64,000 bases of DNA. Origin: Raillietiella orientalis (Eukaryota). The notes beneath the pieces were generated by a model. That model made no database searches. It was given only the letters and a program-made list of their open reading frames with translations, and had not been told where the DNA came from. Below are positions 8,901 through 62,340 of this stretch, one piece after another. Numbering within the stretch: the first letter of the stretch is position 1; each line of letters starts with the position of its first letter. Location: the NCBI GenBank assembly GCA_036172245.1, contig JAYWIR010000018.1, positions 2,170,001 through 2,234,000 of the forward strand. The letters run 5' to 3'. A program made the position numbers and the translations under genes.

Positions 8901-10282
8901 GCACGGCACTGCTTCCTCCGGTCTCCACGAAATTGCTATCCGCAGGTGGACCATGGCCTCGTGATCTCCAGGTCAGCACCCAACGGCGGGTGACTTCCCA
9001 CGAACGCCGATGTGTGCGCCTGCACGCATTATTCTACGGAGGTGCGCCAGCAGCGAAAAACTGCTCTCGCTAGTGCCGGGCAACCACTAGAGGATGTGGG
9101 GATTCGGCTTCCCCGTGAGGTAACTCGCCTCACTAGTGGAAGCCCGCCCATAGATCTCCTGCCGCCCGACGAACTTTAATGCTTGGTGGCAGGAGGATGT
9201 TGTGCTGGGCTATGTTCCAGGAAATGGGCTCAAATCTTTGCTTCTTCCCCCCCCCCCCACGACATTTGTTGCCACGGCCTCTGGAAGCGGTGATGCAGAA
9301 CGCGGCAAAATGGTCGACCCTGGCAGCCATATCCCTCACCTCAACGCTGCCTGTCCTCATGACCTGTCCGCAAGACATGACAGCCTACTGGCGAGATGGG
9401 AGTTTTCCTGGACCATCGCGAGAAAAATTAGACCCCTTGGCGGCTGGAAGACGGGTGAGTTGGCGGATGCTGCCACTCCGCGTGCTTTAGCGAAGGAACT
9501 CCTTCGGTGGAGAGAACATCTGAATGCCGCCCCCGAAGAACTTGGTCCATCCCCATTGTGTAGACGGTTCGTTGTTCTCGAGGCAGGCCATACTGCTCTT
9601 CATCTACTGGGGATTCCAGTGTAATGAGCGACGGCATCGAGTTTCCGGAAGGGTTGCATCCCCGAACTGTTCCAGGTTCCGCACATTTTTCTGGACTGCA
9701 GTGCCCTCCAGGAACTGTGGCGACAACTCCAGGAACTGAGGTTGGCAACAGCACTCCTGCACCAGGAGGACACCGCCCGAGACGTGCTGCGGTGATTCTT
9801 CGCGCCGGGAGACCTCTCGACGGGCGCGGTTATTGCAACCGTGGGTTGCATTCGTGCCATCTTTGGGGCCTGACAGGTGCTATTAAACACCACGCATTAA
9901 AGGGAGATCACCAGGATGGCAGCCACCTACATCAGGAATGTGGCCTCACCTGGAAGAGGAAACCAAGGAGGAGCTCACCGACATCCACCGCCTGATTTGG
10001 AACGGCGGACCCGGTGATCCTTGTCCCCTCTCTCCTCTTACTTTTTTTTTCTGGTTACCCGTTCCCAGTCACTCGGTGAATACGGAGCGACACCAAAGAT
10101 CCCTGCCTTTTCCACCCACTTTGTTTGTTTTTGTTGCCCCTTTGTCCTTCCCTCGTTCCGGACTCGCTGTTGTCCCTCCCTGCGGGCCGGTGGACCCTCT
10201 CCTTGTTCCTTGTTGTCGTCCGTTGGGAAGTTTTGTTCCCAACTGATTTATTGCTATAAAATATATACCGGGTGAAAAAACT
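5950..10282 (+). mobile_element. Degenerate Tx1/L1-like non-LTR retrotransposon (3' ~1.6 kb well supported, upstream part tentative)
   Basis: zf-RVT-type C-terminus FLDCSALQELWRQLQ at ~9690, pyrimidine-rich 3' UTR, and terminus ...CCGGGTGAAAAAA at 10268-10280. Upstream there are faint echoes of RT/EN motifs (HPSALYRRW ~7690; GQPLEDVGIRLP ~9080). Frameshifted throughout. Confidence 0.6.
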
Positions 10283-38445: not shown

Positions 38446-41123
38446 AAAAGAAAAGTGAAAAACTCTAGAGAACTCTTTCTCCTGCTCAAAGACAGAGGAA
38501 TGTCGGCTTTGGTAAGAGCACTGGGAGTTTAAGACGAAGACGAAAGACGAAGTGCCGAGGGAACTCGAGGTTCCACGCAGAAAGCAGGAAGAGGAGGATG
38601 GCCTGCGTCCGTAGCCAGCGTATACGGAAGGTTTACCAAGTACACTTCGGTCACCATCCAGAATGAGCAACTGTCAGCGCACCTTCTGCAGGATAGCAAA
38701 ATGATGGAGTGTCCCTCCCAGCCTCCCGACGTCCCAGTGTACGCAGAAGTTCAAGGCGCACGTTGATGCAGCTGGGATCAAGAATCGAAACGCGCGTCTG
38801 AATAAAGTACGCAGCTCGTCTCTCGGTGAGCCTGCAGGAGGAGACTGATCCGACCGTCCTTCGGCTCGGGTAGATCTCCCTCCTCCAACGGCTCTGTCCT
38901 GGCGGTTGGGCTAAGGCTCGACGCTTGAGCTCCATTCATTTTCAGAGCCGCTTGCTTCAGCAGCTGAGTCGTTGTCGACATTCCTTAGCGGATTCCGACT
39001 TCCATGGCCAACTTGCTGCTGTCCATAGCAACCAACACCTTTCAGAGTCGCATAGGGTGCTGTAGCCCAACGTTTGATTCATCCCACAGTGCCAGTTCTG
39101 CTTACCAAAATGGACCCACTGTACGCTCATAGATCCGACAGTCCCAGCTTCAGCTTTCAAGAAAGACGGACTTCTCACCCATTCGAAGTTTGAGAATAGG
39201 TCGAGGCCATTTTGGCCCGGGGTTTCCCAATCATTCGATTTACCAGATGAGACTCCATTCTTTTTCTGCTTCAGCGAGCGCCAGCTATCCTGAGGGAAAC
39301 TTCGGAGCAAACCAGCAGCCACTAGAGAGTTCGATTCGTCTTTCACATCTACGCCCAGCTCTCAAGATCACTTTGCACGTTGGAATCTCTGCGGACCTCC
39401 ACCAGATTTGCCTCTGGCTTCTCCCTGGTCAGGCACAGATCCACCATCTTTCATTTGTTCCAAGGGGATGTTCTCAGGAATCCCTCTTTCCCTGGGGCTT
39501 TCGGAAATTCCATGGTTCTGAAAGTTTGCGCTTTGGTAGAGGTGTCGTGGCTGTTCGGCAGGCGTCCTCCTCATTACTCCCGGGACTCAACTCACAGGAA
39601 CCCTAAGCAGTCATTGAGCCTCTCGGAAGCCTCCCAGGTCAGGGATGGGTCAAGGGGTCAGAGGAGTGCACGGTTCCCAGCTGCCTCCCAAACTCTCCTT
39701 TGGTCAGAAGAGACCACGCTGCCACCCGTCCTGCCAACCGCAAGCCAATTCTTCCAGCCAATTCTGGATTTTCCCCCTTCCCCTTCCAGATCGCGACAGA
39801 CGTAGTCGTGAAGCAGGAACCGTGGCGTGCCGCGGACAGCTCGGGGTTCCCATGGACCCGCGAAAGATGAGATGAGATGCATCAGATGGGAGTTCAGTCT
39901 GAACATTTCGGCTGCTTTTTTCTACCAGAGCCTTCTATTCGCTGCAGCAAGATCAATTGTTTTTCCTATCTCCACAGCTCGAAGGTAAACGATGCCAAGG
40001 GATGATCTGGGATCACGCGCCTTGGAATCGGGCGAGCGTTCCAGTTGCAACGGAGCTGCAGCCAAAACCTGTCTCTGAACGGCAGGAAAATAGGCAACCG
40101 GACGAACAGTAGCACCGACGGAGCTTCTCGCAGATGTGTTGCCAGGTAACAGACCTGGATCTTGCGTCCCGGAAAGCTTTTCGGGGCAACGCCTCTGTTT
40201 GCCGCCTGGTCTGCATGCGCGTGCTCTCTCCCTCTTAGCAGGAGAGGCGAAATCTCCTCAACTTCTAAAACGAAAGTGGATCTTCCTTTTCCGGAGGAAT
40301 GCAAGGAGCTCATCCTAGGCGCGCGAAAGAAGAAATCCGGGAGGAATCGTCTGCTGTCCGACTGTTTGGGATGTTGCGGCGGGATAGAAGCTTCCCCGTG
40401 ACGGCTCCGGAATCAACCGGGGTGCTCCACCCGTAGATCGATTTCTTTGTCAAAGCAGTTCCCTCGGGAGACAAAAGCGCTGATCGCTTCGGGGGGAGGC
40501 TGGGTAGAGAGGGGCTCCTCAAGGAGGGAGATTCGGTGGCCGAGGTCTCCGGGGATATCTCGTCCCTCTCTTCGTGCGGAAGACGAAGCGAGAGGGTGAA
40601 GAGACGGGGGGAAGTCTTCCGGAGAGGATCTCGGAGACGGCGCGGAGAGGGTTCCGGCGAAAGGGGTTCCAAGGGACCTCGGGAACCAGGGGGACGGAAG
40701 TCCCGGAAGAGGATTCAGGAACGTTCAAAGGGTTGATCGAAGGAGACGGCCGGAGGGGATCGCTTTGCGCTGACGTCTCTCGCCTCCAGGATAACCAAGA
40801 AGCGTGAAGGGGGTGGGTGCTCCCGATCATAGATCAGGAAACGGTCAGGTTGGATCAGGAGCCTCGGGTGTCCCGTGGGGCGAAACAGAGAAAAAGGGAA
40901 ATGAAGCGAGAAGAGAAGTCACATGGTTTTCCACGCAGGGCAAACATGGGCTCGAAGCTGCCGTGTCTGGGGACTGCGGAGGGCGAAGGACACGCCAGCA
41001 GAGGACTGCAGCGACTTGAAGCGGGCAAGGGCCGAACCATGGAGGCAGCGAAGGGGGATCCCCACTATTCCAATCGTTCGATCTCATCCCGGAAGAAAAA
41101 AGGGAGGATGTGTGGAAGCGTAT

Positions 41124-44999: not shown

Positions 45000-47900
45000 C
45001 ATCGTCAAGCGGCATCCTTCCTGCATGTACCTCTGTTAAGAAGCAAGAATAATTCGCACGGTTTCTTTGAGCAGTTGGGTAGCTGGACCTCACCGGTTGA
45101 TTCACCTGAAGGATTTCAGAAATTCCTCTTTGATTCACAAGCATCTGTGTTGCGGTTGCCTCGACTCATCCCACGCACTCCTTCTACATCCAAAAACGGA
45201 TTTTCTAAACTCACTGGGAATCCACTCTTATATTTCCCACATGCAGCACCTGCACTCCTGACAGGGATTCGTTCCTCTTGCCACGAAACGTCTGAATCTT
45301 TTCTCCGTCTGAACCCTTGAAATCTTTTCGCAAGAAACTCGACATCTTTCCCACGATGTTCGGAAAACGCCACAGCAGCCCTTTCTACATAGAAAGGGAA
45401 AATCCAATCCAGGCGTGTTGCACTTGCACTCAAGCAAGGACGGACACTGACGGAAACGAAACCTATCTTGCTCGGGCGCTGGTACCAAGAGCAGGTTCAG
45501 CACATTGCAGCTGGTGCCCCCAGAACTCTGAAGGAAACTCTTCCGTAGCACAGGATCTTGAAGAAGTTATCCGCTTCCGTTTTGTTCTCGATGAGTGATT
45601 GCCTAACCAGATTTCGAAAACTTCAGCTCGACAGACAAAAGAATCGCGGGTGGCCTTCCAGTTCCAAACTCAACGGCATCTTCCATTTCTTGTGCTGGTT
45701 TAAGAACCCGTTTCATCTCAGCAAAGGCTGCTCGCCTATGTTGCAGCAAGTACTTCCATGCAGGTTCCCTGCTGCAGATTTGAGCACCTCACGAAACTGA
45801 GTGGAAGATTTTTTTTTCACCTTTCTCATCGAAGCGTTTCGATTGCGAGCACTGCTTTTCTCACTTATGATTCCCTGCTTGACTTTCTCGTCCATTCTCT
45901 GTGAATACAAGCTTTCTTCTCGCTTGTTTTCAGAAGACTGCCATCTGCTTTTTAATGAAGATGGTTTCGTTGGGTTAAGCCATATTTGTTTAGTGCTCTG
46001 TCATCTCATTTTTCATCCGACAAATAACGCGCAATCCCGTCACATACAGAATTGTGACTTTGGATTCTCGCTGTTCACCGTCTTCATTCGCAGGTCATTT
46101 ACTGAGTGAATGTCTGTGATGCAGGCTTCTGTTTCCGCTTCCACGTGGGGTCGTTGCTCCCCCAGTCTATATACTTGCCTATTAAGGCTGACATCAGGCC
46201 TCTCGAGCTGTTAGCCAGCTTTGCTTAGACTCTGTGTGCCTCATAAGGACATTCGTCCCGTTTCCTGGTGAGATGCCAGAGTTGTAGAGCATCCAAGTCC
46301 TCCAAGACTTGGTGCAGCGAATCCCTCTTCCTTCTTTCTCTCGTGGGCGGCATGAAACTGCCGAGAACCCGTTTGCTTTCTTTCCAGAGGATCTTCCGTT
46401 GAACTTGCCCCACTTCCATCTTTGTTTTTTCGTCCAGTCGGCAGAAGGCCGCTCCAAAGAGCACCTTGGGAAGAACTCCATTCCACAAGTCGGTCCTCTG
46501 TTTCATGCTGAAATGCGCGCGGATGTAATTCGTTGCTTCTCCTCTAGCTTGCCCCAGGATTTCTATCAACAGCATTTGCAAAGCTGAGGCTTCCCCGATG
46601 CGTATTCCTCGGTACTTAATTTCATCCACCACTCGGAAACCCTTTTCCGTTAACGTGGAAAGATCCAAAATTCCAATGGGCAGCAGCTGGGACTTCTGGC
46701 ATTGATTTTCAGGCCTAGCCCTTTTTAAATTGATCTAACCACTTCCAGAAACGGGTCCTTCTCGTCCTTCAGGAATAAGAGAGAAGATCGTCTGCATGTG
46801 CTACACTGGTCAGACTGTTGTCTCCGATTGTGAGTCCTCGGAGGAAGACTTTTTGGTAGACGATCGACAACACAGCTTCCATATAAATGGCGAACAGCAT
46901 CGGACTCAGAGAGTCTCGTTGGCGGACACCCCTTGGATTGCCTCCGTCTCATGTCCCTTAATTCGGATTTTGAAGTACGCGTTTCTGAGGGCCATTTGCA
47001 CATATCTCCACCAGGTACTGTGGGACGTTCATCTTCTCCAAGATTCATAGCAGCATCCCGTGGTCAACACTGTCGAATGCCTTTTCCATGTCCGTGAAGA
47101 TTAGCACCAGGTTGTCACCGACGTACTGGGTGAGGCCAATGGTGGGCCTGGGCACACTTCACGTTATAAGACGTGCGCCGTCCAGCCATGGAGCACGTCT
47201 GGGTCGCAGAAATCAAGGAAGGTCGAACCTCCTTCAGGCAGTTGGTTCAGATCTTTGCTAGCCGTTTGGTATCCGTATTCAAGATGTTTTCAAAAAAGTC
47301 ACGCAGCGACTTTCTTGAGATCGCCACTTTCCAGCGGTGTCCGCATCCTGCTTTCGTGGAATGACTCCGGGCTTTCCTTCTTCTCGAATTTTGAAGGTTC
47401 GTAAAACAGGCGCAGGTAGACGTGCAGGTGCGTAGTGAGAGATGGGAACACTGTCGGCGTCTTCCGCATCTTTACACAGTTCTGCGAACATTTCCTTGGC
47501 TTCCTCGAGAGAGATGTCCGCGTTCAGTTCTTCTTTCTGTGTTTGCTGCAGAAGTCTCAGGATTGCTTGCTGCTCCATCGGGCACAAATCTTGACGTTGG
47601 GAGAAGGTGACGTAATGGTCTTGGAACGCCTCCGTGATCCCTTCTTGAGTGTGCCGAACTTCTTACCCAAATTCTGTTGCAAAGACATCGGTTGCAATAA
47701 TTTTCTTTTCCAGTGTATCCATCTTCCCTTTTACTTTGCGGAATACGTACCGCCTTTCGTACTGCTCCCGGTATCTTGAGAGGAAGCGATCTTCGATGCT
47801 GAGCTCCCTGTGCGCTTCCTGCATCCAAACTGCAAATTGCACAAGACGAGAGGATCATATGCTTCGGCTGTCCCAATCATTGACTCAGTGGATGGTGGTG

Positions 47901-50560
47901 TCCCACAGGGTCGTTTCGACGAGTTGCTGGTGGCTGGGGAATGTTTCTAACCAGGCAGGCATGCTGAGGAGAGCTGCCCTTGTGACTGTTTGTTTTTCAG
48001 GGTTCGTGGTTTTCAGGGTGAACCGCACCAGGGAATGGTACGACAGCAGGGTCTGCGTGTCGCAGAATCCTTGAATGCGGTTGACAAGTTCTTGACTGTA
48101 AGGACGTGATCGATCTGTTTGTGGCAAGCTGTTAGCCATAGCAGTCCGACGAGTTCGGATCCACGATGTCCATCATACAGAATTCAGCTACCAGTACCTC
48201 ATCAACACAGCAACCAGCCTGGCGATCATCTACAATGACGTGTCCGTCCTGGAGAACCATCGCCTCTCCCTCGCGCTCAGGATGATGCAGAAGGAACCCG
48301 AGTGTAGCATACTGGTCAATTTCAGTCAGCGGGACCGCTACAAGATGCAGAAGACGATCTTCGACATGGTGCTCACCATGGACATGTCGAGGCACACGGA
48401 TCTGTTAGCCCAGGTTGCCAGCATGATAGACTCCAAGAAGCAGGAGATTCATCGCCACGTAGGCCGATAAGACGTCCTGCCTCGAGCATCGGGGAGCTAG
48501 GGGATGGTATCTGGGGCTCAAAGTCACCCATGACGAGGACCATGTCTTTCGATGTGGCCTTGCTGAGCAGAAGGCTCTGCACTGCCTCTACACACTGGTC
48601 TCAGTGGTTTGTACACGTTCACCAGGTAAAGATGAATGCTTTCGGACCAGGACATGCGAAGTCCAACGATACGACCGGTCATGGAGAAAAGGTTTCCAGG
48701 ATGGTGTGCGCAAGCTCGTTCTTCAGGGGATCGCTAGCCCCTTCGTTTTCCTTTCTCCCGGGCTCACGAACAGCTGGCTGTTGCTCTACCTCTAGACAGA
48801 TTTGTTGTCCTGTCTCGTGGGTTTCCTACAGGCATAAAATCTCATGATACTGGATGGTGTGCGTGATACGTCCTCTTTTCTCCTGGTTCGCCATCCCGTT
48901 GATGTTCCAGGAAGCAATTTTAATGCTCCTGGCGAATGACAGGAAGGAGGCCATCAGGGATTATTGGACAGATTTGGTTTTTTTTTTCTGCTTGGGAGGG
49001 GTCCACTGTTTGCACCCAACAGCTTTTCCGTCTCCAACGTCACTTTCGGTCTCGGCAAAGTTGATGCTATCGTCGCTGGTCTTTTCCTTCTCTTGAGCTA
49101 GACGGGAAACCCGTATTATTTTTCTTGAGGGTGTTACTGACTGTTGGTTGGTCTGGACGCATTTGGCTTTCGTCATATTTGGGGCATCCTCCACCTGCAG
49201 TCTTAAACTGTTATGCACTGTCGTGCCTTGTATTTTGTTCTGGAGTGTGGACATTCTGAGCAGAGCCTCTCTTTGCACTTCTTCCGTGTTGTCCGGACGA
49301 GTCGCTGTGGCGAGTGTAACTGCTTTCTTTTCTCATTCTATTGACTGTTCCTTTTCCTTAGTAGCGTCGTTATCCATCGGTTCTACTGAAGGTGGAGGAA
49401 GCTCTTCTTTTGTCAGCTTCCTTTTATTTTTCTGTTTCTTTTTCTTCAGAGTTTCAACATCGTCAAGTTCGCTCTCCCCGGTTGTGGTCTCTTCTTGATG
49501 TTTTTGCTCCTGTGTTCTTGTATACTGCAGGCAGCGAGGGTAGTCCTTTTGGAACTGGCCGCGCCGAGAGCTTCCTGTGCTCTCGTTTGGTACGTTCAGA
49601 TACTTGCGGCGGTGGCACTTTGGAGGTTTTGTGCAGTCTCGAATGAAGTGACCATGCTGGTCACACTTGAAACGGCGAGCCTTTGGGCAAGTGCCGATAC
49701 GAGGATCAAATTCTTTGCAAGCTGCGCAGAAGGTGGGCTGCAGCCGGTATCTTACCTGCACATTTTGCGAGTGTGCGTCGATGCGCAGCTCTCCTCGGAT
49801 CTTTGCATCTTCGAACAATCAGATGCGGGTCACTGCTTCTTTCCACGACCTTCTGAACCTCGACATACTAGGAGAAAAAGTCCCAGATGTCCTTCTGGTT
49901 ATTGAAAGCACTAATTCCCGTTAGGTAGTGCTAATGGATACTTCACCCATTCCTCGCAGCGGTCTGCCATTCAGGACGATGCCTCGCCGATGAGCGTCTC
50001 CTGCAGGGTCTCATCATTTTTATATATAGTAAAGCCGATCATAGGAGGGGACGATGGTTTTGATTTTTGTAAATTCTACACCCCTGTTTCGGAACGCGAA
50101 ATATATGTCGCGGACGTTTGCGAGACGTAGCCGTCCTGTTTTAAAGGTCACCACCACCTTGATTTCGCCTCCCATATTCCAAACAGGCTTCTTCACCCGT
50201 TGTATTTCGAAAGTGCAGGGTTTGGTTGTCCACGCCATAGTCGGCGCTGCCATAGCCGCGTAGGAGAGGGACGTTGCTGCCGCTGGTGCTGCGAGCGATG
50301 GCAGTATCATCATTGCCGACGCTGGAACCTCTTTCGAGGTCAACGGTTGGCACCTCCACGGACGAAGTGTTTGCTGTGCACTGCCCAGTGCTTGGTAGTG
50401 CCGCTTCCCCTACTTCCAGATGGCGTACGGCTATGGAGTGATGGCTGGGTCGTTCCTCGATGTAATGGCCTCTATTTCTCATGCCGTCCTTCCTTCGACA
50501 TGGGTTGGCTGATTGTGATGACGCGGGAACCTCTCGCTACTTTTCCGGTACCGTGAGCAC
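45000..50560 (-). mobile_element. Near full-length degenerate Tx1/L1-clade non-LTR retrotransposon (gag-like ORF1 + APE-RT ORF2)
   Basis: ORF1 knuckles YRLQPTFCAACKE...FKCDQHGHFIRDC, with ORF1 stop at 48961. ORF2 ATG at 48954: MASFLSFARSIKIASWNINGM...ILCL*ETH, then VMGDF, QIDHVL and LSYHSLV (EN). RT: LIFTDMEKAFDSVDH (~47060-47105), VAHADDLL (~46790), IKYRGI (~46610). Cys-rich C-terminus ~45420. Confidence 0.85.
48159..48446 (+). pseudogene. Fragment of a class I cyclic-nucleotide phosphodiesterase catalytic domain (PDE4/dunce-like), embedded antisense in the retrotransposon
   Basis: Open frame IHDVHHTEFSYQYLINTATSLAIIYNDVSVLENHRLSLALRMMQKEPECSILVNFSQRDRYKMQKTIFDMVLTMDMSRHTDLLAQVASMIDSKK aligns by eye to PDE4 IHDVDHPG.SNQFLIN..SELALMYNDESVLENHHL...DMVLATDMSKH..LLADLKTMVETKK. 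Confidence 0.85.
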
Positions 50561-50624
50561 AATGCGCGCGAAGCCAGATAAGTGTTGTCTTCGGCAATTG
50601 TCCCCAAATCCGACAAGCGGAAGC

Positions 50625-51250
50625 GTGAATTTATTTGCATTCTTTTAGATAACTACAACTTAAACAAACACAACGAAAAATTTCATTCGCCTGCACACTA
50701 TACTACTCGCATTTTTTTCCATGGTGGATAGGGAATAATTTCAACTGTATGGACGTAATCGTCTATTTTCTTTAAAATGTATCGATACGTCCAGGCTGGT
50801 ATCCATCCGCAATTCCCAATCCCCATTTCTTTTTGTATAAGTCTCTTGAGGATTTCCACGGACAGTGTTCCTCGCTGGAGTTTTTGCATCTTTGCTCTTC
50901 TTATCACAACTGCTGTGATAAAGAGGGCAAGCCTGGTTCGAACTATCGGGTTGTACAGGGATACGTTTCCGTTGCCCTGAAACAAGCCCTCCAGAATCTC
51001 GATCTTCTTGCTTCTCTGCAGGCCGGTCACCGTCTTCACCTCCTGCCAATCAGGTCGAAGTGTGGGGCAGGTGAACAGGGGGAACTGCGTTCCTTCGGCT
51101 CCACATGCCTTGCAGAGTCCATCTTGGATATTCCCGGTCCAGTGTCGAAGTCTGGAGCTACTCAGGATCCCTCCGTGACAGAACAATAGGAGGTCATTCT
51201 GGGTGTCTGGGCGAAGGTCACTCCACCAAAGTGCATCTCCAACCGCTTGC
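50625..51250 (-). mobile_element. 3' end (zf-RVT) of another L1/Tx1-like element
   Basis: ORF 50698-51186: HGGILSSSRLRHW...LCKACGAEGTQFPLFTCP; AATAAA on the minus strand at ~50633. Confidence 0.7.
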
Positions 51251-52489
51251 AGGTTTGCATGTGGGCATCTTAGCGGCTTGAAGATGCATCGAGGGCATCA
51301 CCATTTTGATATTTCTTCATGATTTCCTCTTTCATGTTGGCTTTGGTCATCAGCAGACATACTTGATGTAGCAGCTGTATTGTTTTTAGTATGCGCGAAG
51401 AGCTGCTGCAAGGCAGATGCCACCAATATTTATGAGTGCTCTGTTTCATTTGAAATTCAATCGTTTGCCTTAAAGCTGTTCAAGTCTTAGAGGCGCGTGA
51501 ATGAAAGATCTAGAAAGTTTTCGCCCTTTGTGCTAATGAGCTAGAGTTTTGTAGGGGTTTTCCATGTCACAACAGAAATTGTTTTCTGCTTTTTTTCTTC
51601 TTTGCAAAAATTATTTGGAATAAAATTTCGCATGCTCGTTCCAGTCCCCGGAGTCCGTTCTATCTCTTTATCCCCCCCTGGGATTTCCCGTTCAAGTATT
51701 CTCAAGATCTAAAAATCATGGTGCAGCTACCTCAAGAACCGTAGTGGAACAAAGATTGATTCGAACACCATCGAAAGAAGGATGCAATTTACGAAGGATG
51801 GGAGAGAAACTTCTTTGTCCATGCCCATCCTCCACCAAGCTATTATCTAATGAGCGTCCCTCGACAGCAAAACAAGAAAGAGACATGCAGATCTCGGCAT
51901 GGCGACATTCAGATCGTTGTCGATTGTAAATGGAATATCACAGTGCTACAAGAAGCTTCCAGTAAATTATGGCTATTAGAAGAAAAGTAGATTATGGAGA
52001 CAGAAATCAGAAGACTCCAGAATCTTCTAGACGTAGCTCCTATAATGTGCAATTTATTATGAGTGGACACGTATTTCCCTTACATCATAAAGTGCATCAT
52101 CACAAACGATGTAAAGGCGGCTGACGAAGTTGTGTGCTGGAAACTTACGATATGGATGGATGTTCCTTGGTTATTCCTTGTGCCTGTCTTTGTTTGTTTT
52201 AAAATCGGTGAGGGGGGATTCAAGGACTGGAGTCGACCGAAACTTAAAACATGATTTCTTGAAGACGAACTTTATGATTACGTTAGGCTGAGTGCAACAC
52301 AATACAAATGCTCTCGTATACACAAACATACAGATGTTAATGTAAAATCCGAAATTTACCTACCTTAGCCAAGTAGCAAATTAACTTATCGATTTGCTAC
52401 CTGCATAAACTTATTCTGAATTATAAGCAAGTTTCCGCCCACTTCCAAACTATCAATTATATATATCTATATATCTACATCGACATCGA

Positions 52490-53408
52490 CGAGGCGTATC
52501 TCAAAAGTAAGAGCCGATCGGATGTAAAGAAAGAACAAATAAGAGAAACAAAAACGTATTGGTGGTCCGAAACACATACATCCCCGTGTCATTCTTCTAC
52601 GTGGTCGCCATCTTTTCTCCAAGCACTTTTGATATCATCGAAGAAGCTTTTTGAAAGCTCCTGCATGGAATTCCACCGCCTAGCAGTTCAGCCAGTCCAG
52701 CAGCAGCACTGCGCTTTTCCACTCCTTCCTTTCCCCCTCGAATCGTTGAGCCACTCCTTGAGGTGGAGGAAGACGTGGTGGTCACTGGGGGAGAGGTCAG
52801 GGCCGAGTGATCAAAAAGTCCCCATTTGAATTTCTGGATTTTCTGGACAGCAGTGTGTGGGCGCGCGTTGTGTGGGCGCGAAGGAGAATTCCTGATCTCA
52901 GCATTCCACGTCGTCGGTTCCGCTGGACGGCACGCCGCAGTGTTGAAAGTGTTTTTCGCAGTAGGCTTGCGAGGTGGTGGTTGTTCCGGGCTCCGTAAAG
53001 TCCACCCTCCGAAAGCGCACCCTTCGGTCCCACACACTGCCCTGTCCTCACATTCCAGACAATTTGGAAATTCAAATGGGGACTTTTTGATCACTCGGCC
53101 CTGACCTCGCCCCCAGTGACCACCACGTCTTCCTCCACCTCAAGGAGTGGCTCAACGATTCGAGGGGGAAAGGGAGGAGTGGAAAAGCGCAGTGCTGCTG
53201 GACTGGCTGAACTGCTAGGCGGTGGAATTCCATGCAGGAGCTTTCAAAAAGCTTCTTCGATGATATCAAAAGTGCTTGGAGAAAAGATGGCGACCACGTA
53301 GAAGAATGACACGGGGATGTATGTGTTTCGGACCACCAATACGTTTTTGTTTCTCTTATTTGTTCTTTCTTTACATCCGATCCACCCTTACTTTCGAAAT
53401 GAGCCTCG
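52490..53408. mobile_element. Mariner-derived fold-back element: two transposase 3' halves joined head-to-head
   Basis: Minus strand: VDFTEPGTTTSQAYCE / TLSTLRRAVQRNRRRGMLRSGILL / HNARPHTA...FKW. The arms carry the PDLAPSD-type motif (PDLAPSDHHVFLHLKEWL in the right arm) and KCLEKDGDHVEE*. TIR-like ends CGAGGCGTATCTCAAAAGTAAG and CTTACTTTCGAAATGAGCCTCG; (TACATC)n-like repeats on both flanks. Confidence 0.9.
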
Positions 53409-57670: not shown

Positions 57671-58942
57671 CGTGGATCTTATCGAAACGAATTCATCACT
57701 GGTCTTCATCATTTTCTGGATGTCCTTTTTAACGTTTGGGTGTGAGAGGATAAGTTCCGATTTCCATTTTGGTCCCTTCCTTTGGTATTGTATTCCTATC
57801 CTTCGGATTCTTGCGCTTGTAGGCGGGAAGAGAGGAAGCATCACTTTTCGTTGAGTACAACACGGTATTTCTGATCTTGAATCTAGCAGACGACCCAGTA
57901 GACGAGCCAGCCGATGTTGAAACGGATGCTGAAGAAAAAGTTCTTGGTCTGGTTGGGGGGGGGGGGGTAATTGGAATTCGCTTCGCCTCGTACACAGACG
58001 GATTTTTGCCCTAAACGCAGCTTTTCGGTCCCGGAAACTGTGTGTGCTCTCATTCGGCGTGTCCACCTATAGCACTCAGCGCGCCGATAGGAAAACGAAT
58101 TCGCTGCAATGGGCCCAGTCGACCTGACCGACAAAAGAACACAATCTTTGAAACATTACGACATCTTGATTTGTTCTGCTGCATGTAATCATCACGAAGG
58201 AAAGCACCGATAGATAGAGACACACACACACACAAGATGCATGCGAAAAAGGGAAAGAAGAAAAAATCCTCTGAAAGGCCGAGCTTTCCAGTTGACAAGG
58301 AAGAAGGCAGAGCTGACCATGACACATGGAAATGAGACGCAGTTTGATGCCCACGGTGTGTTAACTACAGCAAGACGGCCTACCCATCGTGTGTGGTGCT
58401 GTGCGTGAAATCAACGCCACGCACTTTTTCCAGATCTGAGATACCCAGATGCTATCAAGCACAAATTGATACAGCTTTTACTATACCGATTTAGGAGAAG
58501 AGCGCCTAATGTAAATTCCTGCTGTGCTGATCTGATGGTGCTGCATCCAGAAAACTCGGAAGCACGTGATTCCGAAGGATAAGAAGGGGTAAGGGAGCTC
58601 TTGAAGCATTTCTAGGGAAACGGAGACGTGGCGCGAGCGAGCTGCCGTCTAAGCGAACTTCTCCGGAGATGAACAGAGCATGCAGGATGACCGGAGTCTG
58701 CGTACTCCAGCCACCACTGGAATAAAAACGAACGCCGGAATCCAGCAAATCCCATTTGATCGAAAGCGGTATCCTTGGCACGCTATACACTGCTCTCCCC
58801 CCACCATGCCCTAGAGCGTACCTCTCGTGTCATGTCTTCCACCTCGTTCCTCGGTCGTACCCTCCTCTTTTGAGTCAGTTCAGTCGAAGTGAGTGGAAAT
58901 TCTGACCTTGTAATATGCTGTTGTGTGCGGATGCGCTGCAGA

Positions 58943-59221
58943 ATGCGTTTCCGCAGGCCATGCAGTGTGATGGTGGCTGCCACTCTTTTACTCGAGTTCT
59001 TGGAGGTTCTCTCTAACAAGGAGATGGTGAAAAGGCACAAGAAGGACAGGAAGACGGAGACGCTGTACATCGCCGGGTTCTTCCCCACCGGTGCAGAGAT
59101 AGCCGAGGGTCGGATAGGGAGGGGCGTGTTGCCGGCCGTCGAGCTCGCCATCGAGCATGTGAACAGCAACAGCAAGATCATCCCCGGTTACAAGCTGGAG
59201 ATCATCTGGAACGACACAAAC
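58943..59221 (+). CDS. GABA-B-R2: GABA-B receptor subunit 2 (class C GPCR), first coding exon; partial CDS (alternative in-frame ATG at 58931)
   Basis: Signal-peptide-like MRFRRPCSVMVAATLLLEFLEVLS, then LYIAGFFPTGAEIAEGRIGRGVLPAVELAIEHVNSNSKIIPGYKLEIIWNDTN. This matches insect GABA-B-R2 as recalled (VYIAGFFP...GRGVMPSVKLAL.HVN....IL..Y.L...WNDT). Homology ends exactly at a consensus phase-0 donor AAC|GTGAGT (59222). Confidence 0.9.
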
Positions 59222-60456
59222 GTGAGTTTCCTCTCTCTCTGTCACTCCTGAGGAGGGAGGAAGGGGGGCTTAAGGCGAAGGATGAGGACAACGGATAGCC
59301 GAGACGATGGCGAGATCTATTCTGGAGTCAAAAGCGTTCAACTCCGAGACTGCATCCGGAAATCAGATTGAACCTCAGCAAACATCTCCCACAGGGAAAG
59401 AACATCTCTCCGCAAGTTGACTTCCTTCGACACTGCCACTCATCTGCGCGTGCTGCGTCCTCGTCCCGTAAGAGACGCAAAAGGACCTCCTCCGAGACGC
59501 AAAGAGGCAAGGGGAACAAGGAAGCCGAAACGTACTCCGTTCCCGGAAGGGAGTTGCAAAGCAGCGGCGTTTCGTAATTTCGTGGTACAAAGTACGAGTA
59601 CAGTACACGCTCGCTTCTCCCTGTCCTTTTCCTGCTCCTGCCGTACGATGATTTCCGACTCTGCGCACAGGTATATGTGAGCTTTGTCCACGCTGAGGAT
59701 CGTGTTGGTTTCGCAGTTGGCGCGCCTCGGATAGAGAGAAAGCAGCCCTTTGTCACTTAGTTACCCGGGACGTCGAAAATGAGCGTCCGAGGTCTACGTT
59801 CGTGGTACCACGCGCTGCGGGTTCGGATCCCACCAGGGGGAAACGTGAAGAAATGGAGTGCGTGTCGTGGGTTTCGATTTCCCCCTCAAGATGGCGCTGG
59901 TTGTCCTATAGGTTTCGGAGCGCGGCACTGGTGCAAGCGGGGAAGCCCTCGTTGACCGGTCGGGATTGGAAGTGGACCCTCCACCGTTCTTCCAGGACAT
60001 CAAGGAACCCTTCGGGGTTCCCCTCCGGCCGTGGAAATGGAGCCGTCAATCCCCCAGGGGTGACCCCCCTTCGCGTGCCATGGAGCTGGCCTATTCCGCT
60101 CCTGAGCGCAAGAAGCGCGCCGCCACCCTCCCTTCGGAGAACGTCCTTCACAGAAATCGGGAAGCGTCCGTTCGCGGTTCTCTTCAGAGGAAGAATCAGG
60201 AGGTTCGAACGCGGTTCCTTTGCGGGTTCTTTCCTTCCGGAGGAGAAGTTCCAGGAGCGCATCCTTTTCGGATTCCCTTCGGCGAAGAAAATGAGGAACG
60301 AATGTTTCCGGGTGGTCCCTCCGGAGACAACCAGGGGGAGGTTCCCTGCCCTTCCCCAGACTCCTTCGTCCTTGAATTCAGAAGGTGAGCCCCCCCAAAC
60401 TTGAGGAACCTCGGGGAGAGTGAAACAGTGCTAAAAGGCCTCGCGAGCTCCTACGC

Positions 60457-61576: not shown

Positions 61577-62340
61577 TTTTTCATTCGGTCACTCCAGAGC
61601 ATTTATTTTATAGCAATAAATCAGTTGGGAACAAAACTTCCCAACGGACGACAACAAGGAACAAGGAGAGGGTCCACCGGCCCGCAGGGAGGGACAACAG
61701 CGAGTTCGGAACGAGGGAAGGACAAAGGGGCAACAAAAACAAACAAAGTGGGTGGAAAAGGCTTTGGTGTCGCTCCGTATTCACCGAGTGACTGGGAACG
61801 GGTAACCAGAAAAAAAAAGTAAGAGGAGAGAGGGGACAAGGATCACCGGGTCCGCCGTTCCAAATCGGGCGGTGGATGTCGGTGAGCTCCTCCTTGGTTT
61901 CCTCTTCCAGGTGAGGCCACATTCCTGATGTAGGTGGCTGCCATCCTGGTGATCTCCCTTTGGTGCGTGGTGTTTAATAGCACCTGTCAGGCCCCAAAGA
62001 TGGCACGAATGCAACCCACGGTTGCAATAACCGCGCCCGTCGAGAGGTCTCCCGGCGCGAAGAATCACCGCAGCACGTCTCGGGCGGTGTCCTCCTGGTG
62101 CAGGAGTGCTGTTGCCAACCTCCGCCATAGTTCCTGGAGGGCACCGCAGTCCAGAAACGTGCGGGATCGACTCCGTCGACTCTGAAGTCGCCAGCGCGCG
62201 CAGCGTTGCTTTCAAGCTCGGGTTAGCGGAGAGGGAACGGGATCCTCCCTGCTGAAAAAGAGGAACCACAGAAACGTTGCCCAGCGTCCGGCCCGCGTGA
62301 CTCGGAGATTTTCTGATGCTTCCCTCTGCTCCACGTCATT
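61577..62340 (-). mobile_element. 5'-truncated LINE 3' fragment in the GABA-B-R2 intron; near-identical inverted copy of 9688-10262
   Basis: 61604-62157 is the reverse complement of 9688-10262 apart from a handful of substitutions and two short indels; terminus AATAAATGCTCTGGAGTGACCGAATGAAAAA. Confidence 0.9.

Follow-up and report, generated by a model that had tools for sequence, protein, structure and literature searches.

Class 2 templated insertions (class 2 TSIPs) are short pieces of a distant locus that carry neither a target-site duplication (TSD) nor a poly(A) tract and come with a microdeletion, microhomology and added nucleotides, and the experimental events described in Onozawa and Aplan (2016; PMC5110952) measure 73–414 bp. 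In mouse zygotes, internal pieces of spliced mRNA without poly(A) were found at CRISPR-induced breaks, among them an Inadl piece of about 310 nt and a reversed piece of Pcnt (Ono et al. 2015; PMC4516963). Short fold-back inversions are described as arising at breaks in yeast (Yu et al. 2024; PMC11724301). A fourth related class is formed by chimeric retrocopies, in which a host RNA is fused to a LINE; those described in Gogvadze et al. (2007; PMC2104539) and in a preprint (bioRxiv 10.1101/2025.02.02.635956) are mostly in the same orientation, fused at the LINE 5' end and bounded by one TSD.

The insert reported here lies in a window of 64,000 nt (C18:2170001-2234000; contigs are numbered C1, C2, etc.) from the 210-Mb genome of Raillietiella orientalis. 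It is an intron-less, PDE4-type mRNA fragment at 48159–48448 of the plus strand, 290 nt from the HD motif to KKQE, and is 88.3% identical to its parent gene on C6. Compared with the spliced parent, it contains 34 mismatches (26 transitions and 8 transversions) and no gaps over 290 nt; its end moves to 48451 if a 2-nt match beyond one mismatch is included. Like the class 2 insertions as described in PMC5110952, it is a short piece of a distant locus within the reported size range, here a multi-exon spliced cDNA, but it is old (about 9–12% diverged), non-mammalian, located in a LINE and accompanied by a hairpin-loop inversion. The capture of an internal piece of spliced mRNA without poly(A) is shared with the mouse events, whereas the breaks of PMC4516963 were induced by CRISPR and here a break is presumed and the microhomology is 1–2 nt. 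As in the yeast fold-back insertions reported in PMC11724301, a very short inversion on microhomology stands beside the presumed break, here combined with a distant RNA-derived patch. With the LINE chimeras of PMC2104539 and bioRxiv 10.1101/2025.02.02.635956 it has in common that host RNA is joined to a LINE, but here the host sequence is internal and antisense. In all, the insert is real and mostly an ordinary fossil of a known kind, an RNA-derived fragment with break-repair scars.

A stop-free PDE catalytic segment on the plus strand, placed between the GDF and QIDHVL motifs of a retrotransposon and inserted into its endonuclease region, was the core of the original prediction, and the analysis agrees with it on each point. 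The plus-strand frame at 48102–48467 is free of stops over 122 codons and matches Pfam PDEase_I (E 1.4e-23), with 48159–48448 as its PDE-derived part. On the minus strand, the GDF codons of the element are at about 48520–48528 and QIDHVL is at about 48103–48120, with the insert antisense between them, and sibling copies of the element are uninterrupted across the site.

The insert corresponds to three separated stretches of one gene on C6, namely three exons. The 3' part of the first lies at 48159–48210, the complete middle exon (158 nt) at 48211–48368, and the first 80 nt of the last coding exon at 48369–48448. Both parent introns in this interval (2 of 2; GT-AG introns of 76 and 177 nt) are missing, precise to the base, at the junctions 48210/48211 and 48368/48369, which shows that the insert was copied from spliced PDE4-type mRNA. 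It was proposed earlier that introns in the parent interval would mark an RNA-mediated capture, and two such introns were found. The start of the insert, at the HD motif, falls within an exon, and about 450 nt of parent sequence separate its end from the stop codon; the insert is therefore an internal piece of the mRNA. The donor gene is intact over the interval, with open exons and GT-AG introns.

By similarity, the parent is a PDE4-type gene with a catalytic domain nearest PDE4: its last coding exon matches PDE4 structures with E values of 1e-48 to 1e-43, versus 1e-18 for PDE7/PDE8. Its translation also includes an exon that may correspond to the upstream conserved region UCR2. A different PDE gene as parent was rejected, the sole DNA alignment of the insert to any other PDE locus being one 39-nt hit at 79%. 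Two motifs, HDVHH and ENHR, had been listed as altered PDE residues of the fragment. The first is not damage to the copy, because the parent gene carries HDVHH as well; at the second, the parent reads ENHS. Human PDE4 has HDVDH and ENHH at these positions, and the second histidine belongs to the metal-water network; with HDVHH and ENHS, the parent enzyme may be unusual.

In a DNA search with the insert, only the window and the C6 gene were matched (2 of 2 candidates scored), and a genome search with the parent region recovered the window insert again (4 of 4 candidates scored). No second filled copy of the element was found among the 40 of 320 sibling candidates that were scored. The insert is thus a single copy that did not spread, which answers the earlier question whether other copies of the element carry it, and an element-borne, transduced gene fragment was rejected on the same ground. 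A protein search of the insert against longer proteins gave no match at E 1e-15, and human PDE4 from the structure database was therefore taken as outgroup.

The host is a decayed LINE copy on the minus strand. ORF1 with a zinc knuckle and upstream sequence occupies 48961–50500, ORF2 from its start to just beyond the GDF motif (the first part of the AP-endonuclease) occupies 48463–48960, and the remaining ORF2 (IDH motif and reverse transcriptase) occupies 46129–48144 and ends at about residue 872 of 1177. This copy is 3'-truncated, and 27 non-triplet gaps interrupt 2.6 kb of its ORF2; judged from its sequence, it is dead.

Dozens of sibling LINE copies give the empty site, which makes the case unusually well resolved: the deletion, the filler and the fold-back inversion can each be placed with single-base precision. 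Element homology to siblings ends at 48463 and restarts at 48159, where empty copies have 5 nt between, and these 5 nt of the target are lost. At the 3' junction there is a filler of 14 nt (48449–48462); 8 of these nt recur in the parent cDNA immediately before the 5' junction, a weak match (shuffle P 0.046). At the other end is a fold-back scar (48145–48159), in which 5-bp inverted arms (48145–48149 and 48155–48159) enclose a 5-nt loop (48150–48154) that is inverted relative to siblings. At 48159 the element shares 1 nt of microhomology with the insert, and at the opposite junction no more than 2 nt. The hairpin 15-mer has 103 exact sites in the genome on both strands, and only one of them, the window, has the inverted loop in the element-sense context; none of 24 distinct sibling rows shows it (4 of the 24 are mis-anchored by indels). 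The filler and the inverted loop are additions to the original prediction, which had rightly noted the absence of poly(A) and of a clear TSD: there is no A-run at the insert, and no direct repeat of at least 5 nt is shared by its flanks (48 nt on the left, 52 nt on the right), whereas other copies of this LINE family do have TSDs (see below). In a sibling copy at about C24:1015200, a short duplication is present at the hairpin where the window has the inversion, so the hairpin site may be fragile.

Two other sources of the filler were considered. A decayed TSD of the element is unconvincing, with about half of the bases matching by eye. A 16/17 match to the 3' junction of the insert plus filler exists at C6:2918403-2918419, 8 kb downstream of the parent on the opposite strand; its chance probability is 0.2–1.1%, but it was found post hoc and the stretch has a 99.9% identical duplicate 192 kb off (C6:3110924-3110940), so that templating from this site was treated as a probable coincidence.

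A classical TPRT processed pseudogene or class 1 TSIP was rejected, since the insert is without poly(A), mRNA 3' end or TSD and 5 nt are lost instead. An assembly artefact is scarcely credible: it would be about 100% identical to the parent, compared with the observed 88% and the 26:8 excess of transitions, and it would produce neither the filler nor the hairpin-loop inversion.

The explanation we regard as probable is a PDE4 cDNA patch over a chromosome break in LINE DNA, that is, a class 2 templated insertion. A germ-line chromosome break would have occurred inside the endonuclease region of the LINE copy, after or during its integration, and would have been filled with DNA from an internal part of spliced PDE4 mRNA, either ready-made cDNA or a product reverse-transcribed at the break. 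End joining would have removed 5 target bases and left the 14-nt filler at one end and the fold-back inversion at the other, and the patch would then have decayed neutrally, by about 0.09 substitutions per site, doing nothing. The enzyme was probably the LINE reverse transcriptase acting in trans. Several marks of class 2 insertions and of break repair by reverse transcription are found here: no TSD or poly(A), a microdeletion with microhomology and filler, and an intact donor locus. Against this explanation speak the indistinguishable ages of insert and host copy, which leave capture during integration some probability, the raw dN/dS, which resembles constraint until selection on the parent is taken into account, microhomology of only 1–2 nt, and two more PDE4 pieces that tile with the insert, which one independent patch does not explain. 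If the explanation is right, the locus offers a clean natural case, outside mammals, of a germ-line break repaired with RNA-derived sequence. Capture by template switching or break repair had been suggested before; the RNA-derived capture stands and break repair suits the scars, while the usual first-strand switching fits poorly.

Template switching could take two forms. In the first, which we hold to be unlikely, the LINE reverse transcriptase switched to PDE4 mRNA in second (sense) strand synthesis during integration and then returned, in a manner resembling twin priming. This route predicts that the insert is antisense and as old as the element, antisense mRNA/LINE-1 chimeras are attributed to twin priming in the preprint cited above (bioRxiv 10.1101/2025.02.02.635956), and related elements are abundant, some with open ORF2 frames. 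The ages of insert and element are indeed indistinguishable: second-position mismatches are found at 9 of 97 codons in the insert and at 49 of 363 invariant ORF2 codons in the host copy (Fisher p 0.31), and because of this the order of insertion and element integration cannot be fixed. However, the element is collinear on both sides with only 5 nt lost, and the chimeras as published there are fused at the LINE 5' end. Moreover, non-triplet gaps number about 10 per kb in the host copy, of which about 2.5 per kb are alignment background, versus 0 indels in the 290 nt of the insert, a weak hint that the insert is younger than its host.

In the second form, the first strand would have jumped twice, from LINE RNA to PDE4 mRNA and back. 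Tripartite LINE chimeras are known (PMC2104539), and the host LINE family itself acquires snRNA heads, but the chimeras described in that paper have the same transcriptional orientation and the insert is antisense (PDE on plus, element on minus). An ordinary first-strand jump fits badly for this reason, and an antisense spliced RNA would be required as template; we judge it highly improbable.

The open frame of the insert raises the question of selection. Against the parent, dN is 0.091, dS is 0.319 and omega is 0.285 (Fisher p 0.001), which taken alone indicates constraint. We simulated a neutral copy against a constrained parent with 250 runs per setting, and obtained a median omega of 0.30–0.38, a probability of 0.25–0.44 for omega at or below 0.285, and a probability of 0.56–0.60 for no stop. 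Neither the open frame nor the low omega requires selection, since neutral simulation reproduces both. The dN/dS comparison suggested earlier does yield apparent constraint, but this is lost once selection on the parent is modelled, and purifying selection on the insert was rejected. At 18 residue differences (compared by eye), the parent equals human PDE4B at 11, the insert at 0 and neither at 7, and conserved PDE4 residues are replaced in the insert (HPG to HTE, N to Y, ATDM to TMDM). On this evidence the insert appears neutral, with no shown function.

These data bear on two possible roles. The 122-codon stop-free frame and the omega of 0.285 could suggest a functional exon, or part of a retrogene, within a plus-strand transcript, but such a frame stays open by chance in about 6 of 10 simulations and the replaced residues are conserved ones. 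Also, no other PDE exon is present in the window and the nearest PDE gene on C18 is more than 260 kb away on the opposite strand, which leaves this role very improbable. Equally poor are the prospects of the proposal that the insert was retained because element transcripts yield antisense small RNAs tuning PDE4. It has a 42-nt perfect run (48218–48259), and 196 of its 270 21-mers have at most 3 mismatches to the parent; however, only 22 of 270 are perfect, the divergence is that of neutral decay, the dead host copy keeps no more than a remnant of its head, and the insert is single-copy. The antisense small-RNA role put forward in the original prediction is thus unsupported, although it would raise the importance of the insert if such RNAs did act on PDE4.

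The search with the parent region also revealed two further decayed PDE4 pieces, at C32:798773-799065 and C1:4888452-4888676. Along the parent cDNA, the window insert spans 49–338, the C32 piece about 326/341–603 and the C1 piece 574–817, so that the three lie nearly end to end. With random placement, tiling within 35 nt at both joints occurs in 0.005–0.015 of trials, for a pattern that was noticed post hoc. The C32 piece is not inside the host LINE family. No extra PDE4 pieces were found upstream or in the 3' region beyond the C1 piece, in a search that short decayed exons could escape. Altogether, 29 of 31 PDEase_I matches group as apparently nine genes, and PDE4 is the origin of both remaining orphans. 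None of four other PDE catalytic regions searched alike (0 of 4) has a distant orphan piece of at least 100 nt: that on C16 gave a local duplicate and a paralogue exon, that on C2 a 54-nt hit, and those on C78 and C32 nothing. The local duplicate (C16:2256448-2256736) repeats part of another PDE gene at 96% identity over 290 nt and lies 2 kb upstream of the catalytic exons of that gene.

The C32 and C1 pieces share a Val codon, versus Ile in the parent, in their overlap. The window insert is 88.3% identical to the parent and the other two 80.2% and 81.9% (p 0.008), with 0 gaps versus 4 and 4, and by these measures the two look older than the insert. Synonymous divergence among the three does not differ significantly (p 0.46). 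Neither the C32 nor the C1 piece crosses an intron position, and hence they need not be RNA-derived.

From the tiling it might be supposed that the insert was copied from DNA, either an earlier processed PDE4 retrocopy or one cut-up long cDNA of which the C32 and C1 pieces are other parts. The end-to-end arrangement, with its chance of 0.005–0.015, and the absence of comparable orphans from the four other PDE regions favour such a source. The lower divergence and lack of gaps of the window piece go against it, a contrast in age that the synonymous comparison softens; the pattern is post hoc, the two other pieces span no intron, and a longer retrocopy was looked for in the genome and none was found. 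We consider a DNA source rather improbable.

A related possibility, still unlikely although we give it somewhat more room, is that the three tiles of 250–290 nt on C18, C32 and C1 come from a diced cDNA or retrocopy that patched separate breaks, or from an mRNA cut at fixed sites and captured repeatedly. If true, the tiling would preserve, as a fossil, how fragments of RNA or cDNA entered germ-line repair, and abutting orphan fragments would allow this to be traced genome-wide; if general beyond PDE4, it would imply a defined step of RNA or cDNA cutting as the source of repair patches. For a tiled gene-fragment pattern of this kind no publication was found in a search of mainly open-access papers.

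The host LINE family encodes a CCHC knuckle in ORF1 and an AP-endonuclease plus reverse transcriptase in ORF2, as in L1/Tx1-type non-LTR elements, and an open relative of the host element has Exo_endo_phos and RVT_1 domains. Its best database relatives are 28–38% identical and mostly unnamed, and the label Tx1 is given by resemblance. At the 5' end the family carries a full-length U4 or U1 snRNA, and at the 3' end AATAAA and a short hairpin without poly(A). Element sequence follows in 29 of 30 U4 loci examined (of 42 scored), and many unrelated upstream flanks end at U4 nt 1. TSDs of 13–16 nt were recognized by eye in 3 of 5 fetched U4-headed single copies; in the other two no 3' end was detected. 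The family also forms 5.5–5.7-kb arrays of divergent units (73–95% alike), at whose joints the 3' end of one unit meets nt 20–27 of the next snRNA head. The crocodilian Tx1-Mar elements, as described in Kojima 2015 (PMC4494074), are likewise autonomous Tx1-type LINEs with U1- or U2-derived 5' ends; here, in contrast, full-length U4 occurs besides U1, the copies form head-to-tail arrays joined at about nt 20–27, and the clade is assigned by resemblance. No publication that treats U4 snRNA together with a Tx1 non-LTR retrotransposon was found, again in a search of mainly open-access papers.

In the text of a 2015 paper (PMC4640811), the snRNA-targeting elements named are only Keno, Utopia, Dada-U1 and Dada-U6. 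Among the first 30 LINE 3' ends by contig order (of 168), one is followed by U4 and none by U1. Strict targeting of U4 or other snRNA genes, of the Keno/Utopia type, was rejected because only 1 of 30 examined 3' ends precedes an snRNA; there may be a strong but loose preference for snRNA targets. Many U4-headed copies have common flanks on both sides with a 14-nt duplication; these may go back to an insertion in another repeat, multiplied together with that repeat, or to a repeat that is preferred as target. The shared upstream flank was also considered as a U4 promoter, and this was rejected since the final 14 nt of the flank turn up again behind element 3' ends, as a TSD within another repeat would.

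Among the relatives found, the U1-headed subfamily is the closest intact relative of the window copy. A probable remnant of a U1 5' head is present in the window at 50552–50584 of the minus strand (profile positions 2–37; E 0.044, weak alone), and old copies on C2 and C10 have it at the equivalent position. Rfam reported no snRNA at 50200–51000, where only a profile built from the genome's own U1 copies matched weakly. Upstream, at 50597–51360 of the minus strand, a second copy from this LINE family is represented by its 3' end, with the ORF2 end, AATAAA and the terminal hairpin but no poly(A). This 3' end lies about 12–14 nt upstream of the U1-like head of the copy that carries the insert (both within 50552–51360), an arrangement that would result if the two had integrated at a single target site; a matching repeat upstream of the 50597–51360 piece was not found.

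Regarding the rest of the window, 2 of 125 long ORFs of the host gene context matched Pfam, and a weak ANF_receptor match under the Pfam cut-off at 58874–59248 of the plus strand is possibly an exon of a plus-strand host gene. An isolated fragment of large-subunit rRNA (Rfam RF02543, model positions 675–1447) lies at 38835–39515 of the minus strand. There are also two inverted repeats, one of 579 nt with 95% identity whose arms (9688–10266 and 61601–62157) are 51 kb apart, and one of 396 nt with 92% identity (52490–52884 and 53021–53408), which forms a near-palindrome.
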